Part shown: one piece after another, positions 21,850-35,517 of the stretch
Layout: every line of letters starts with the position of its first letter
Numbering within the stretch: position 1 is the first letter of the stretch
Assembly: GCA_963796275.1 (NCBI GenBank)
Contig: CAWCKY010000007.1
Coordinates: 544,001 to 608,000, forward strand
Source of the DNA: an uncultured Acidobacteriota bacterium
Lineage (GTDB): Bacteria; Acidobacteriota; Blastocatellia; RBC074
DNA length: 64,000 nt
Reading direction: 5' to 3'
Translations under genes and position numbers: made by a program
Notes under the pieces: model-generated
Seen by the model: only the letters and a program-made list of their open reading frames with translations
Database searches by the model: none
What the model was told of the DNA's origin: nothing

Positions 21850-22714
21850 ATGAATAAACGAGCTGAAAAGAACTCCCTGCTCAGCGGCATCGGCGCGCGG
21901 GTGAGGGCAATGAGGTTGGAATGCGGTATGACGGTCAAAGAGTTCGCCGAGCGTGCGGCGATCTCTCCGCGTTTCATCAATCAGCTTGAAGCGGGAGATG
22001 GCAATATCTCTATCGCCCGGCTTGCACGTGTGGCCGAGGGACTCGGCCGCACACTGCCTGAGCTGATTCCACCACCGGAAGATGATGGATCTATTCGCTC
22101 GCGCACCTGGCGGCTATTGAGCGAATGCAGCGATGAGGATTGGCAGGAGCTTCACCAATGGCTGGAGAAGCGTAGCGGGAACCGGCTGGAGCAATCTTTT
22201 ATCGCGCTCATCGGTTTGCGCGGGGCGGGGAAATCGACAGTTGGCACGCTGCTCGCCAGGCGTCTCAAGCAACAGTTCGTTGAACTCGATCAATGGGTCG
22301 AAGAAGCCGCCGGAATGCCGCTTGGTGAAATCTTCGCCACACACGGCGAAGGATATTACCGGCGTCTCGAACGAGAAGCGCTGTCTCAGCTCTTTGTGAC
22401 TGCCTCCACCTCGGGCGGCTGCGTCTTCGCGCCGGGCGGTTCGATTGTGACCGATGCCGAGAGTTGGGAGCTTATCAAGAGGCGCTGTTTCACCGTCTGG
22501 TTGCATGCCCACGCCGGCAGAATTTATGAATCGAATGAGGCGCCAGGGTGATACCCGGCCAATGCAGGGGCGGCCCGCGGCGATGGCCGAATTGAGAGAC
22601 CTGCTCCAGCGGCGCGAACCGCTCTACGCCGAGTCGCAGCTGCACATCAAAACTACCGCTAAGTCGCCGGCCGAGATTACTTCACAGATCATAAAAGCAC
22701 TGGAAGAAAGTTGA
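21850..22714 (+). CDS. boxR: BoxR/BzdR-type regulator (XRE HTH + shikimate-kinase-like domain), split by a +1 frameshift near 22510
   Basis: HTH, GLRGAGKST P-loop, YYRRLEREAL; removing one C from GCCC at 22507-22510 gives WLHATPAEFMNRMRRQGDTRPM...LYAE; adjacent to hcr/box genes. Confidence 0.88.
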
Positions 22715-22835
22715 TGGTTGATAGTTGATAGTGGCTTTGTTGCATAAATCGTAAATGAATATTTCAGTTGACAGTTGTTAGTTTTCAGTTGCTGATCGAA
22801 TAAGCTCAGCTAAAACTAAAAACTGAAAATAACTG
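22711..22835. repeat. Heptamer arrays: TTGATRG x3, then degenerate TTTCAGT-type units and an inverted AACTGAA-type array
   Basis: ttgatgg-ttgatag-ttgatag overlaps the boxR stop; 22762-22794 is imperfectly complementary to 22806-22835. Confidence 0.75.
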
Positions 22836-22841
22836 CTCACC

Positions 22842-23028
22842 CTCTTCGCCGCGTTAGCGGCGGTTGATTGTAGCCGTGGGTTTTAACCCACGGTGGCGGT
22901 AGATTTTTTCACGTCGCGTCAGCGACGGTTGAATTCAGGCGTCGCTAACGCGACGCGGGAATATCCTTCAAGCCTTCCGTGGGTTAAAACCCACGGCTAC
23001 AATCAACCGCCGCTAACGCGGCGAAGAG
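22842..23028. mobile_element. 187-bp REPIN/MITE-like non-autonomous element
   Basis: Perfect 52-bp terminal inverted repeats (22842-22893, 22977-23028) plus a nested 16-bp inner inverted repeat. Confidence 0.75.
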
Positions 23029-23100
23029 CATATATAGAGTTTTCAGTTGATAGTTTGTTAGATTATTACCGTAGTGTTTAAGGGCTATCGACTAGTATTT

Positions 23101-23170
23101 ACCAGCTACCAGCTACCAGCTACCAGCTACCAGCTACCAGCTACCAGCTACCAGCTACTATCAACTATCA
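23101..23170. repeat. Heptamer tandem repeat (ACCAGCT)8(ACTATCA)2 overlapping the hcrB stop
   Basis: Read directly from the sequence. Confidence 0.95.
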
Positions 23171-24144
23171 ATTTCTTTCAGCGCTCTGATCACATAAGTC
23201 CGAGTCATTTGTTTCCGCCAGCCCATCACGAAGTCGGTATTATCGAGCGGGCGCGCCTTGATGTAGCAGGCATCGGCAGCAGCGTGGATGTTTTCCGGAT
23301 TTAGCGGCTTGCCGACCAGCGTCTCTGCTGCCTCAATCACATCGATCGGTGCAGGCGCTATACCGCCGAGCACGATGCGCGCATTTTCAATTGTGCCGCT
23401 ATCCGATCGCTTCACCGACGCGGCCACACCCAACACCGGAAAATCGAACGAACCGCGCCGTCGCAACTTCTGATATGTTGCCTGCATTCCGTCAGCCGGC
23501 GGTAGATAAATTTCTGTCAGCAATTCATCGGTCTGTTTTCGCAAGTAATGAATTCCGTCGTGGTTGTAAAGCTCTTTCGCTTCAATCACGCGCTCGCCTG
23601 CGACCGAAACGAATTTGAGTTTTGCGCCGATAGCTACCATGACGGGCGCGAGGTCGGATGATTGCACAGCCCAGCACATGTGACTTCCGGGGGCGACCCA
23701 GCAGGTGTCGCCGTCTTTTTTCAGGCAAAAGTTGACGCTCCGGCGCCACTCGTAATTCTGATTGTAGTAATTGCAGCGCGTATCGAGCAGCAGATTGCCG
23801 CCGATCGTGCCCATATTGCGCAACAGCGGCGTCGAGATCAGCCTCGCTGCTCGGGTTACCACGGGCCATATCGTTTTGATAAGTTCGTTTTCGCAGATTT
23901 CGCTGAGCAGTATACCCGCACCGATGGAGATGCCGGATGACGCATCACCGCGAATTTCATGGAGCTCGGACAGGCGCATCACTGAGATGACGGTTTCAGG
24001 CATCTGCTGGCGCCGCTTCATATTTGGATAAAGATCCGTACCGCCGGCTACGAACATCGCCTCCGGGCCGGCGTGAGAGATCATTCGAACGGCGTCATCG
24101 ACGGTACGCGGCAGCAGGTAATCAAATTTTGGAAGTCGCATCAT
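23161..24144 (-). CDS. hcrB: 4-hydroxybenzoyl-CoA reductase beta subunit (FAD, [4Fe-4S])
   Basis: AGGTDL, RNMGTIGGN, cysteine insert CX15CX7CX8C, KLRRRGSFDFP. Confidence 0.9.
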   Translation of the reverse strand: MMRLPKFDYLLPRTVDDAVRMISHAGPEAMFVAGGTDLYPNMKRRQQMPETVISVMRLSELHEIRGDASSGISIGAGILLSEICENELIKTIWPVVTRAARLISTPLLRNMGTIGGNLLLDTRCNYYNQNYEWRRSVNFCLKKDGDTCWVAPGSHMCWAVQSSDLAPVMVAIGAKLKFVSVAGERVIEAKELYNHDGIHYLRKQTDELLTEIYLPPADGMQATYQKLRRRGSFDFPVLGVAASVKRSDSGTIENARIVLGGIAPAPIDVIEAAETLVGKPLNPENIHAAADACYIKARPLDNTDFVMGWRKQMTRTYVIRALKEIDS

Positions 24145-24148
24145 AAAA

Positions 24149-24174
24149 AGTTTTCAGTTTTCAGTTTTCAGTTT
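24149..24174. repeat. Left arm of a perfect 26-bp heptamer-built inverted repeat
   Basis: AGTTTTCAGTTTTCAGTTTTCAGTTT; exact reverse complement at 24573-24598. Confidence 0.95.
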
Positions 24175-24226
24175 ATAGTTCAATCAGTATTAACTTCTAC
24201 CTTTGGCCACCCCGGAAAGGTGTATT

Positions 24227-24593
24227 ATGAGATCTCAGTTGTACCGAGACTTAATCGTATGGAAGAAAAGCATTGAGTTATGTATTTATGTTTACAAGTT
24301 ATGCATCACCTTCCCTAAATCCGAGTTATATGGAATTGCGAATCAAATGAAACGGGCCTCTGTTTCCGTTCCTTCAAACATAGCCGAAGGACAGGCACGA
24401 CAGCGTTCAAATGAGTTTCTATATTTCTTGTCAATTGCCAACGGGTCATTGGCCGAACTTGATACTCAGCGCATTATTGCCGAAAAATTGGGTTTTCTTT
24501 CTTGCGATAGCAGTTCAGAATCTTGATCTTCAGATAGCGGAGCTACGCAAAATGCTCAATTCCTTGATAAGGAAACTGAAAACTGAAAACTGA
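24227..24593 (+). CDS. Four-helix-bundle protein (23S rRNA IVP-like family), +1 frameshift near 24505-24520
   Basis: YRDLIVWKKS, FPKSELYGIANQMKRASVSVPSNIAEG, FLSIANGSLAELDTQ; last helix QIAELRKMLNSLIRKL lies in the +1 frame. Confidence 0.9.
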
Positions 24594-24598
24594 AAACT
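24573..24598. repeat. Right arm of the 26-bp heptamer inverted repeat
   Basis: AAACTGAAAACTGAAAACTGAAAACT; encodes KLKTEN-stop of the four-helix-bundle gene. Confidence 0.95.
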
Positions 24599-24603
24599 AA
24601 TTT

Positions 24604-27552
24604 TCACTCTATCACATGCACTGCCTGACGCGGCAATTCGGCCCCATCCCCGCCCTCTTCCGGCGTCAATACGCGTAGCGGTTCCGGCCACTCAACCTCT
24701 GGCACCGAGCGCGGACCGTAGCGCCCATCATTTCCTTGTTTACCTTGAGCCATTGCGCGCAGCGCCGAGCGCACCTTCTCCGGCGTGATCGGTACTTCGT
24801 CGATCCGCACACCGACCGCGTCATAGACGGCATTGGCGATCACCGGCGGTATGGGCAGCAGCGGACCCTGCCCGACCTCCTTCGCGCCGAATGGTCCGTT
24901 GGGATCTGGGTCTTCGATAAGATATGTTTCCACTTCACACATTTCCATCGTCGTCGGGCTTTTGTATTCGAGCAGGGAAGGGAATTTGTGTACTAGATTG
25001 CGCTTCGCACGATAGGTCATCTCTTCCATCAGCGCTTCCCCGAGGCCCATATAGACGCTGCCCTCGACTTGCCCTATCGCCGCGCTCGCGTTTATCGCTT
25101 TGCCGATATCGTGCGCGACCCAGATCCGCTCGACTGCTATGATGCCGGTCTCCGGATCGACCTCTACTTCTGCTACTGCTGCCGAGTAGCTATAAGCCGG
25201 CGACGGTCCGACGCCACCGCCCTTGAATTTCGCGGCCGAATCTGGAGGCGAATAAGAGCCGACTGTGCCGATCGTCCCGAACTTCACTTCGGCCATCACG
25301 ACCGCTTCGGCAAATGAGATGCCGTTTTCAGGATGCTCGACGTCGAAAACGCGGCGATTCGCAAAGGCTATCTGCTCCTTCGGCGCATGGAGCTTCTCCG
25401 CGGCAGCAATCGCCAGCAATTCGCGCGCTCGTTCCGCCGCCTGAATTGCGGCGTTTCCCGTCATCAGCGTTACGCGGCTCGAGTAGCTGCCCAGATCGAC
25501 CGGCGTCAGATCGGTGTCGCCGGTAACGACGCGGATATCGAATGGATCGATGCCCAACAAATCGGCGACGATAAAGGCGAGAACCGTATCGGATCCCTGT
25601 CCGATCTCAGTCGATCCGCACATCACGCACACGCCTCCCTGCCGGTCCAGCCGAAGCTGCACACCGGAGTGCGGCATATTATTCCAGTAGATCGGCAAAC
25701 CTGCTCCTGATAGATACGAACTGCACGCGATGCCGATACCGCGGCCGTAAGGCAGTTTGCGGAATTTGCTCTTCCAATCGGAGACCGATACGACTTTCTC
25801 GATGCACGCGCCCAATCCCATGCTGCCGATGCGCAGGTAGTTGACCGTCAGCGAATGCGGCGGCGCCAGATGGCGCATTCGCATCTCCGCCGGATCTAAC
25901 CCGAGTTGTTCGGCAATCTTGTCGATTTGGATTTCGAGTGCAAAGCGCGGCTGCGGTGTGCCGTGCCCGCGCTTCGGGCCGCACGGCGGTTTATTGGTGA
26001 ATGCGCGCAAACCGCGGAAGCGATAGCGCGGGATGTTGTAAGTCACCGTCTGCAGCGCGCCCGTGTAAAAGGTCGATGCGACTCCGTAGCTGCCGTATGC
26101 GCCTCCGTCGAGAAACGACTGGAAATCCATCGCTGTGATAGCGCCATCTTTCTTGGCTCCGGTCTTGACCTTCATCAGTACCGGATGGCGCCCCCGATGG
26201 CAATAGAAAACCTCTTCGCGAGTGAGCGCGACCTTGACCGGGCGGCCCGTGACCTTGGCTAGCTTACAGACGGCGATCTCGTGGTTGAAAGGATCGGTCT
26301 TGCCGCCGAATCCTCCGCCGTTGGGCGTGGCGATGACGCGAATGTGGCTGGCGGGGATTTGAAGAACCTTGGCGAGCGCGCGATGAACATAATGAGGAGT
26401 CTGTGTCGATGACCACAGCGTAAGTTTGCCGTCGTGATCGCATTGCGCTACCGCGGCGTGCTGTTCCAGCGGCAGATGCGTGCTGCCTTCATAGAAGAAG
26501 ATGTCCTCTCGAATGATATCGGCTTCGGCGAAGCCCGCGTCGGGCTCGCCGAATTGGAGGTGAACTTTCTTGTGAATGTTGCCGCCATCGCCGTAATCGT
26601 GAATGCGCGGATCGCGTATGTTTATGGCCTCTTCGATCGATGCGACGGCCTCCAGTCGTTCATATTCGACTTCGATCAGGTTCATCGCCTCGAACGCCGT
26701 CTCTTCGTCGATCGCCGCTATCGCCGCGACCGGATCACCGATCATCCGGACCTTCTCAATGCATAGCGTATGTTCGTCCTGACTCACCGGTAGAATGCCG
26801 TAGGGGATGGGCAGGTCTCGCCCCGTGATGATGGCTTTCACGCCGGGTAACGCCCGGGCACGGGTGACGTCGATATTTTTGATCAGGGCGTGTGGGAGAG
26901 GTGACCGCAACAGTTTGGCGTAGAGCATGCGGGGCAATTCGATATCATCGGCGAAACGCGTCTCCCCGGTGCACTTCGAGCGCGCATCCACCTTACGGTT
27001 ATGCTTCACGCTTTCCTTATCCGCCGCTGAATCTGCCGCTGCTTCTACTGCTTCAAATATCTTGAGATAACCGGTACAGCGGCAGAGATTGCCGGAGAGC
27101 GCTTCCTTGATTTCATCCCGCGACGGATGAGCATTGCGATCAAGGAGTTCTTTCGCCGCCAGCAGAAAAGCCGGTGTGCAGTAACCGCATTGCGCCGCGC
27201 TGAGATCAGCGAAAGCTTTCTGCAGCGGATGAAGCTGTCCACATTCAGCCATTCCCTCAACCGTCGTTACCTCACATCCCTCCAGATCGAGCCCGAGCGC
27301 GAGACAGGATAATATCGGTCTTCCGTCGACGAGCACCGTGCACGTGCCACACTCGCCAAGCTCGCAGCCATGTTTCGTGCCGGTCAGCCCAAGGTCCTCG
27401 CGCAAGACCTCCAGCAGCGTCTTGTGCGGCAAACAGGCTACCTCAACCTCTTCGCCGTTGACCTTTAATTGGAGATGTTTTTTCCGCTTCTCCCTCCACA
27501 GGCCGTCAGCCGCATCCGTCGGAATTGTTTTGTCCACTTTAGACCTGTTCAT
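24604..27552 (-). CDS. hcrA: Fused 4-hydroxybenzoyl-CoA reductase gamma (2x[2Fe-2S]) and alpha (molybdopterin) subunits
   Basis: GCELGECGTC, QCGYC and GNLCRCTGY, followed in frame by the Mo domain (GGGFGG, GPKRGHG, GSYSSR, GAKEVGQG); upstream of hcrB. Confidence 0.88.
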   Translation of the reverse strand: MNRSKVDKTIPTDAADGLWREKRKKHLQLKVNGEEVEVACLPHKTLLEVLREDLGLTGTKHGCELGECGTCTVLVDGRPILSCLALGLDLEGCEVTTVEGMAECGQLHPLQKAFADLSAAQCGYCTPAFLLAAKELLDRNAHPSRDEIKEALSGNLCRCTGYLKIFEAVEAAADSAADKESVKHNRKVDARSKCTGETRFADDIELPRMLYAKLLRSPLPHALIKNIDVTRARALPGVKAIITGRDLPIPYGILPVSQDEHTLCIEKVRMIGDPVAAIAAIDEETAFEAMNLIEVEYERLEAVASIEEAINIRDPRIHDYGDGGNIHKKVHLQFGEPDAGFAEADIIREDIFFYEGSTHLPLEQHAAVAQCDHDGKLTLWSSTQTPHYVHRALAKVLQIPASHIRVIATPNGGGFGGKTDPFNHEIAVCKLAKVTGRPVKVALTREEVFYCHRGRHPVLMKVKTGAKKDGAITAMDFQSFLDGGAYGSYGVASTFYTGALQTVTYNIPRYRFRGLRAFTNKPPCGPKRGHGTPQPRFALEIQIDKIAEQLGLDPAEMRMRHLAPPHSLTVNYLRIGSMGLGACIEKVVSVSDWKSKFRKLPYGRGIGIACSSYLSGAGLPIYWNNMPHSGVQLRLDRQGGVCVMCGSTEIGQGSDTVLAFIVADLLGIDPFDIRVVTGDTDLTPVDLGSYSSRVTLMTGNAAIQAAERARELLAIAAAEKLHAPKEQIAFANRRVFDVEHPENGISFAEAVVMAEVKFGTIGTVGSYSPPDSAAKFKGGGVGPSPAYSYSAAVAEVEVDPETGIIAVERIWVAHDIGKAINASAAIGQVEGSVYMGLGEALMEEMTYRAKRNLVHKFPSLLEYKSPTTMEMCEVETYLIEDPDPNGPFGAKEVGQGPLLPIPPVIANAVYDAVGVRIDEVPITPEKVRSALRAMAQGKQGNDGRYGPRSVPEVEWPEPLRVLTPEEGGDGAELPRQAVHVIE

Positions 27553-27626: not shown

Positions 27627-27691
27627 GAAAGTTGAAAGTTGAAAGTTGAAAGTTGAAAGTTGATTGATAGACGATAGTGAGCTGTGAGCAG
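27627..27691. repeat. Heptamer array (GAAAGTT)5 followed by variant heptamers
   Basis: Five exact copies, then TTGATAG, ACGATAG, TGAGCTG, TGAGCAG. Confidence 0.9.
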
Positions 27692-29393: not shown

Positions 29394-29476
29394 AATGGAT
29401 AATGGATAATGGTCAGTTATCGACAACAACCACTATCAACTATCAACTATCAACTATCAACTTTGAATTATGAATT

Positions 29477-35436: not shown

Positions 35437-35517
35437 AGTTTTCAATTTTCAGGTTTCGATTGCGCGATCTCGATCGGCAGCCGAAACCTAAAACTGAAAA
35501 CTGAAAACTGATAACTA
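35437..35517. repeat. Inverted pair of AGTTTTC-type heptamer arrays forming a hairpin
   Basis: AGTTTTCAATTTTCAGGTTTCG (35437-35458) pairs with CGAAACCTAAAACTGAAAACT (35482-35502), followed by further units. Confidence 0.8.

Follow-up and report, generated by a model that had tools for sequence, protein, structure and literature searches.

A four-helix-bundle gene between inverted heptamer arms at an hcr-like gene junction, and its gene-less hairpin relatives, in an uncultured Acidobacteriota bacterium

What is a small AT-rich block, with ends that are exact reverse complements and a gene of its own, doing between two genes of an apparent operon? The question is raised by the window (the whole 64,000 nt stretch of DNA analysed), in which such a block lies between a fused hcrC/hcrA-like molybdopterin subunit gene (24604..27552, minus strand) and an hcrB-like FAD subunit gene (23161..24144, minus strand), the host genes upstream and downstream of it on the hcr strand, respectively. 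The left arm (24149..24174) is G/T-rich and consists of about 3.7 copies of AGTTTTC, its complement forming the A/C-rich arm on the hcr strand, and the right arm (24573..24598), made of GAAAACT units, is its exact reverse complement, so that two arms of 26 nt each, 100% complementary, stand 398 nt apart. The gap between the right arm and the hcrA-like stop (24604) is 5 nt, and that between the left arm and the hcrB-like start (24144) 4 nt, while the GC content of the block is 0.37–0.43 compared with 0.52–0.65 in the flanking genes, which confirms the coordinates and AT-richness given in an earlier note on this DNA. Perfect 26 nt inverted repeats within 500 nt were absent from 2 Mb of block-shuffled genome and present at 100 loci of the real one, 23 of them with period 7; the window stem is therefore real but not unique. 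There was no Rfam match on the cassette. The earlier note had assigned the surroundings to an hcr operon, and the best NCBIfam matches of the host genes are indeed to hcr, with adjoining boxC and boxB genes that both pass equivalog cut-offs, but the hcr-like genes all score below theirs (beta 260/405 bits, alpha 845/995 and gamma 172/258, the last fused to alpha).

Between the arms, opposite to both flanking genes, is a plus-strand four-helix-bundle gene of the PF05635/TIGR02436 family (24227..24593), preceded by a leader (24175..24226) with a purine-rich stretch resembling a ribosome site. The last ~35 nt of this leader and the start of the gene are 83% identical over 103 nt to a paralogous cassette (C3:319200-319657). 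With TIGR02436 (cut-off 24) the ORF from the ATG at 24227 reaches 104 bits, and with PF05635, for which the cut-off is 33.8, it reaches 110 bits, in keeping with the antisense gene and family named in the earlier note. The reading frame needs a correction: the ORF is frameshifted near 24520 in this assembly and loses some 20 codons by ending at 24526. Its C-terminus resumes in the next frame and closes at a TGA (24591-24593) inside the right arm, which thus gives the gene its stop. A strain about 93–94% alike, represented by contigs of run X2, carries the cassette at the same site and in the same orientation with one base fewer at 24520, and for this particular copy the extra base may be an assembly error. 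Three of the four cassette genes of this genome (G000) are frameshifted, far above the background rate of 5 in 136,410 aligned nt, which makes it likely that the set as a whole is decaying in this strain. The window cassette is an atypical antisense copy, perhaps a decaying one. A sigma-70-like match across 24151-24179 (9/12) was considered as a promoter in the left arm and rejected, the match being weak (3 found vs 1.0 expected) and its -10 word absent from the paralog. Excision was also set aside as a reading of the DNA-contig joints that apparently skip the cassette; these have sides of 22–27 nt with 8–40 other letters between them, and are read as gene-less hairpins from elsewhere.

Other heptamer repeats are present in the window. 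A gene-less hairpin with AGTTTTC-type arms (22758..22829) is nested within a composite element (22703-23179) that lies between the convergent bzdR-like and hcrB-like genes and has AGTTGAT-type outer arms, with the hcrB stop within an arm, a perfect 52 bp inverted repeat carrying a GTAG-type REP word, eight TACCAGC units and weak matches to Acido-Lenti-1 (28 vs 37 bits needed). The bzdR-like regulator gene (NF006015, 21829-22714) is interrupted at 22508 by a one-base indel which neither run X1 nor run X2 shares and which is probably an assembly error. Another gene-less heptamer hairpin (AATGGAT / ACTATCA, 29394..29462) is found at the boxC-boxB junction, an unpaired-looking (GAAAGTT)5 array (27627-27663) in the divergent hcrCA/boxC promoter region, and an AAAACTG array (35490-35516), a further family member, between two minus-strand genes.

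Inverted heptamer flanks, which by the reading in the earlier note should surround homologs of the gene, are present around most of them. Period-7 arms were detected on both flanks at 54 of 69 loci in a family/class set (one further locus gave no hit and was left out), 57 of 76 in a set from named genomes (4 of 80 loci being left out at contig ends) and 54 of 72 in a metagenome set (8 of 80 left out), whereas shifted control windows gave 0/133, 0/139 and 0/83, or 0 of 355 in total. Inverted complementarity scoring at least 12 was seen at 59, 64 and 62 loci of the three sets, periods of 5, 6, 8 and 9 tested likewise gave at most 1, and in 47/54, 48/57 and 45/54 cases the upstream arm was G-rich and the downstream arm C-rich. 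By their titles, the named loci come from Acidobacteria, Planctomycetes, Chloroflexota, Proteobacteria, Spirochaetes, Clostridia, Bacteroidales, Verrucomicrobia, a cyanobacterium and others. Matches were obtained to 31 plasmid records and to no phage record; in two cyanobacterial plasmid copies the arms are less regular. One four-helix-bundle gene with short repeat arms lies between cas10 and cmr3 in a type III-B CRISPR operon of a cyanobacterial plasmid (NZ_CP016476.1, L171), and another, in G011 (L135), is flanked by an inverted repeat of longer period than 7 (GGGGCGAC-like).

The five closest homologs (67–74%; L173, L181, L253, L254 and L255) have AGTTTTC-type arms at other junctions, which for the two titled Pyrinomonadaceae (L173 and L181) is the boxC-boxB junction, and three of the five end within the arm, like the window gene. 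Arm units vary widely but go with the protein: they agree within 1 mismatch in 31 of 104 pairs of proteins at least 55% identical, in different neighbourhoods, and in 23 of 762 distant pairs (<45% identity), these pairs not being independent of one another. Fifty cassettes fall into 33 junction clusters; nine protein pairs below 45% identity share a junction, as do 19 pairs at 55% identity or above, and many cassettes keep one junction across genera. There is no conserved terminus among cassettes and no leader motif common to the family, the GGCCAC-type word of three copies in this genome occurring in 1 of 69 foreign leaders (controls 54/1630). None of 229 homologous loci matched the genome's 23S rRNA, a group II intron reverse transcriptase of this genome (one query, E 1e-3, flanks of up to 1.5 kb) or one of its Y1 transposases (single query, same flanks). 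Arms and gene are portable together among unrelated junctions, and the transposase-less unit suggested in the earlier note agrees with both the other junctions of the closest homologs and the outcome of these two queries.

In the genome as a whole, exact period-7 arrays number 520, compared with 58 of period 6 and 43 of period 8, and only 16 of 613 stronger period-7 arrays are within called genes. They form 274 inverted pairs, mostly with loops under 100 nt, and the G/T-rich arm comes first in 216 of 222 short inverted pairs. After merging, 223 elements were obtained, none of them inside a called gene, with 171 between co-directional, 35 between convergent and 17 between divergent genes; the genes were predicted by the analysis's own caller, so starts are less reliable than stops. 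Arms that face a stop lie within 10 nt of it in 73% of 241 cases, compared with 39% for random placement in the same gap, whereas arms that face a start are no closer than random (56% vs 52% within 25 nt). The loops fall into families, with two motifs carried by 22 and 17 of 212 elements. Inverted heptamer arms bound each of the genome's four cassettes, whose units match 111, 110, 55 and about 10 of its 209 short elements; only 6 of 54 foreign cassette units match at least 10 of these. The window cassette is the gene-bearing form of a genome-wide family with about 220 gene-less hairpins, a family that the earlier note missed.

An origin of the gene-less hairpins as simple deletion relics was rejected for most of them, as a gene remnant was detected in 1 of 215 (7.5 bits vs 2.8 for the best reversed control). 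The loop of a gene-less AGTTTTC element at C3:321599-321703, 2 kb from the broken cassette C3:319200, still encodes the last codons of a four-helix-bundle protein. The arms do not copy host flanks (2.57 vs 2.69 and 3.19 vs 3.08 complementary bases of 8); in one family, runs of at least 4 flank-complementary bases are slightly more frequent than in the controls (12% vs 5%). Several further arrangements were noted. The motif TTTC-N1-2-GAGG precedes 19 of 113 element-adjoining starts compared with 82 of 5813 other starts, as if element end and host ribosome site made a recurrent joint, and in G002 the AGATGCT hairpins L156, L157, L158 and L166 each occupy the very tip of an inverted repeat from a second family (AAACAAACG-like arms), so that one hairpin is nested within another. 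A cassette of a second type, with TAGTTGA arms and in sense orientation, lies at C3:1318063-1318536 between hisD-like and hisC-like genes (named by eye), where the upstream gene takes its stop from the left arm and 2 nt separate the end of the right arm from the ATG, and an intact cassette with ACATTTT-type arms (C6:764240-764920) is followed by a 94 nt duplicate (97%) of its own 3' end.

Comparison of junctions between genomes shows gains and losses that are clean at stop/start junctions. The cleanest filled/empty pairs, the others being too diverged for a duplication check, are L092, where a cassette stands before a mutL-like gene in G002 and a 1 nt gap is found in G000, and L082, where a gene-less hairpin lies between TAA and AGGAGG, which overlap in G000. 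GATG occurs at both ends of the filled L092 site, but this 4 nt repeat is also part of the arm unit, so that duplication and microhomology look alike, and since G019 has a cassette at this site, G000 may have lost one. A syntenic junction was called in G000 for 29 of 57 armed cassettes, some of the pairings being weak, and held the gene in none and a gene-less hairpin in two. At the boxC-boxB junction of the window, a gene-less hairpin takes the place that the gene has in L173 and L181; together with L023, L115, L089, L160 and L165 this junction makes a set of junctions filled in one genome and gene-less or with another unit in a second, and L089, L160 and L165 have different heptamer units at one junction.

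Four units tested over 61 genomes gave bursts, in no more than three genomes each: AGTTTTC in G000, G002 and G020, AGATGCT in G002 (108 matches, with near-identical loops), AGTGATG in G016 and G041, and TAGTGGY in G003 and G039. These counts are overlapping pattern matches rather than copy numbers, and the units were picked from cassettes already seen. A cognate cassette was found in five of the eight bursts, that of G016 with its upstream arm alone confirmed, and was absent for AGTTTTC in G002 (73% complete, 3 genes) and in G020 (6 genes) and for TAGTGGY in G039 (7 genes). Conversely, six genomes have a cassette and only 0–1 hairpin matches. A prospective search for the cognate cassette was positive in G041 (L341, with AGTGATG arms recognised by eye, which the strict string test missed) and negative in G039.

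Many short intergenic hairpins near stops, lineage bursts with shared loops and a rarer gene-bearing partner are also features of REP/REPIN sequences with their RAYT genes and of bacterial MITEs, and REP/REPIN hairpins have a conserved GTAG/CGTC tetranucleotide at the foot. The family described here resembles both, including in the matching ends of the gene-bearing partner, and shares with MITEs the terminal inverted repeats and dispersed gene-less copies, but its partner gene is not a transposase and its arms are tandem heptamers of many units without a common terminal tetranucleotide. No GTAG/CGTC foot was seen, arm ends varying with the unit, and the GTAG-type repeat of G000 is a different sequence, belonging to a separate GTAG-type REP/Y1 system. 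The genome encodes both group II intron reverse transcriptases and Y1 transposases; among nine Y1 loci one has a single heptamer array within 1.5 kb and two are flanked by the GTAG-type repeat.

The predicted structure of an intact 74% relative (L253, pLDDT 96) matches Xcc0516 (2GSC) with a TM score of 0.92 and Z of 20.9, and the window protein matches the same protein by sequence (E 1.5e-22). Against Avd of diversity-generating retroelements (4DWL) the model gives a TM score of 0.80, Z 15.1 and an rmsd of 1.5 over 106 residues, at 13–14% identity, so that the structural kinship to Avd claimed in the earlier note is supported; a resemblance of PF05635 to Avd is also mentioned in PMC10053308, and the pentamer state is that of 2GSC as described in PMC4990558. 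The likeness to Avd (4DWL, 8UB7) is one of four-helix fold, with differences in the low identity, in the lack of a reverse transcriptase at the 229 loci (one query) and in the window neighbours, which are metabolic genes. No template/variable repeat pair was present among the direct repeats listed for 22500-26500.

The closest parallel is the ORF-bearing intervening sequence in helix 45 of the Coxiella burnetii 23S rRNA, which is described in PMC4990558 as having a 28 bp stem with GACAGAT heptamers and an S23p ORF, and as being cut by RNase III without re-ligation. Both that insert and the cassette are ~430–450 nt long, with a 26–28 bp stem formed from terminal inverted repeats, tandem heptamers of varying copy number in the stem and a decay-prone PF05635 ORF in the loop, features that uphold the kinship proposed in the earlier note. 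The cassette differs in lying at protein-gene junctions in either orientation, in having no 23S rRNA match at any of the 229 loci and in its hundreds of gene-less siblings. Published heptamer repeats offer a second parallel. GGGAATC of Xanthomonas, which lies close to stop codons and forms 70 inverted pairs in Xcc, GGGGA(C/T)T of Nostoc (both PMC4692102) and TAACTGA of Beggiatoaceae, placed before start codons (PMC4679880), are likewise intergenic, of period 7, near stops or starts, often in inverted pairs, and of lineage-specific unit. In those papers the repeats are read as G-quadruplexes or, for TAACTGA, as sites of an unknown regulator; their main texts do not contain the words 'helix bundle', that of PMC4679880 leaves the protein unmentioned, and neither text draws the link to the protein or to filled/empty pairs. 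In row 27 of supplementary file 2 of PMC4692102, one GGGAATC repeat is placed 6 nt beyond bccP, where it overlaps the start of XCC0516 (the gene of 2GSC); it is given there with neither an inverted partner nor a comment. In a full-text literature search, with subscription journals and bioRxiv supplements largely outside its reach, no publication was found that joins protein, heptamer arms and gene junctions.

With moderate confidence, we regard the block as a portable element, a four-helix-bundle gene enclosed by two inverted period-7 arms, and as the counterpart at an mRNA junction of the ORF-bearing 23S rRNA intervening sequence; its tolerance at the RNA level and the protein as trans-acting factor are the parts we infer. 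By this reading it is a variant of the intervening-sequence kind with MITE-like behaviour and no transposase, and would be tolerated because it interrupts no coding sequence and is folded away in the mRNA. In the predicted fold of hcr-strand RNA the arms pair (z -3.1), as the earlier note anticipated for the hcr mRNA, and the A/C-rich arm alone is predicted to be nearly unstructured before the ATG. Pairing at the RNA level is weakly supported, in that the strand test leans the right way, with G-U vs A-C pairs on the transcribed strand at 129:93, or 59:41 by element, but is not significant in either subset, and the cassette arms give 30:40.

By this account of a portable element, the G/U-rich arm would be placed just behind the stop and the A/C-rich arm ahead of the next ribosome site. 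Judging by the size of ribosome footprints, termination 5 nt ahead of the stem would bring the ribosome onto the stem foot and open it; alternatively, RNase III may cut the stem by analogy with the Coxiella insert, leaving two translatable messages without re-ligation. RNase III cutting is a feature of that insert, with which the cassette was compared by sequence and by the presence of an RNase III gene in the genome. More tentatively, an Avd-like pentamer would bind its own heptamer stem as the trans-acting factor of the element, gene-less hairpins would be non-autonomous partners of the protein, and the enzyme inserting new copies would be borrowed from the host. The window copy may have been inserted in antisense, which is atypical, or the segment between its arms may have been inverted. 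A bolder form of the account, which we put forward as a speculative possibility, is that the pentamer reads its own heptamer stem and, like Avd, delivers the RNA to a host-borrowed reverse transcriptase or repair machinery, by which cut-out hairpin RNAs would be copied back into stop/start junctions.

A different view of the same elements is that they form a domesticated regulon, in which the protein would be a host-useful RNA-binding regulator, the junction hairpins would be sites that tune processing or translation downstream, and the arms would provide autoregulation. It draws on signs of selection: dN/dS is 0.04–0.20 in 10 of 10 pairs, seven of them verified at the same junction, which indicates purifying selection, and a long stay at one junction under such selection suggests a benefit to the host. 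Both flanking genes are in sense with the cassette gene in 32 of 38 called cassettes and antisense in 1 of 38. These two results also limit the idea of a phenotypically silent unit in the earlier note, which suits the antisense, frameshifted window copy (it and the paralog at C3:319200 are the two antisense cassettes among the four of G000) but not the family. In addition, a ribosome site and start follow the arm at 51 of 205 start-facing ends compared with 3 of 241 stop-facing ones, and TAACTGA repeats before starts have been proposed as regulator sites (PMC4679880). Nevertheless, regulation of this kind seems unlikely to be the main explanation, as hairpins are absent or of another unit in most of the orthologous junctions inspected between G000 and G002, which belong to the same genus, G001 of that genus has no match to the AGTTTTC pattern, three of the four cassette genes of G000 are frameshifted against the low background given above, and the flanking genes have no evident common function.

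It is rather improbable that the hairpins arise and spread passively, by slippage and recombination between arrays independently of the protein, with the gene as cargo swapped by crossovers in both arms. Such a process would account for the junctions filled in one genome and gene-less or with another unit in the next, for the bursts lacking a cognate gene, for the other small cargo gathered at the hcrA-hcrB junction and for the REP-like repeats, which in 53 of 97 cases are no further than 250 nt from a heptamer array. The cargo is nevertheless specific: among 32 long G/T-first pairs in G000, judged by eye, compact gene-sized loops with such an ORF are those of three four-helix-bundle cassettes only, the remaining pairs enclosing repeats, transposase-like inserts (two hold transposase-like ORFs, possibly secondary inserts) and pairings across ordinary genes. 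Moreover, arms are lacking at the six hcrA-hcrB junctions that hold toxin-antitoxin or Uma2 genes, the fixed period and polarity (216/222) would be unexpected from slippage, and variants in one arm are not mirrored in the other (rho -0.02, n=84).

Among the 61 genomes searched, 15 besides G000 have hcrB homologs, and in all 15 the cassette is absent from the hcrA-hcrB junction and no period-7 array scoring above 6 occurs in the 1.5 kb before hcrB; the gene is thus not syntenic in hcr operons, a point raised in the earlier note. The gap between hcrA stop and hcrB is 10–1414 nt in the 13 relatives with an hcrA stop in reach, and six of these 13 junctions hold toxin-antitoxin or Uma2 genes. The cassette is thus a late, local arrival at a cargo-collecting junction. 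The junction has the look of a hot spot for small cargo, genes before hcrB in six relatives (L007-L012) comprising Phd-PIN, HicAB, BrnT, DUF4926, RidA-like and Uma2. A Shine-Dalgarno 4-mer is missing before hcrB in 8 of the 15 cassette-free relatives, in seven of which hcrA is 40–1414 nt off or not within 1.5 kb, so its absence is a trait of hcrB and not of the cassette, and, as judged from these sequences, hcrB does not need the cassette or its stem. The mechanism put forward in the earlier note, in which the stem loops the cassette out and brings hcrA stop and hcrB start side by side, so that coupling is restored (or in which the insert is excised and the message rejoined), is consequently very improbable: the predicted pairing, the 5 and 4 nt spacing and the 88 of 171 co-directional elements whose ends are no more than 25 nt from the stop and 35 nt from the start speak for it, but hcrB dispenses with a Shine-Dalgarno, often far from hcrA, in relatives without the stem, the junction tolerates other genes without arms, a stem 4 nt before the ATG is within the footprint of the initiating ribosome and would need opening first, the Coxiella relative is cut without re-ligation, and the genes on either side of 52 of the 223 elements are convergent or divergent.

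The value of this locus comes from the surrounding genome, in which cassette units match hairpin families. As one testable unit, it joins three questions, those of an orphan protein family, of abundant 7-base intergenic repeats and of the origin of ORF-bearing rRNA intervening sequences, to which a genome-scale view is added of about 220 junction hairpins with units matching resident cassettes and of unit-specific bursts in relatives. If mobility depends on the protein, DNA would be inserted between genes without breaking operons by a new route, and if RNA copying is involved, the elements would make up a class of mobile elements that work by a protein-repeat code and without a transposase. 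Such a code, if true, would explain together the orphan family, the ORF-bearing rRNA inserts and the period-7 repeats of bacteria.
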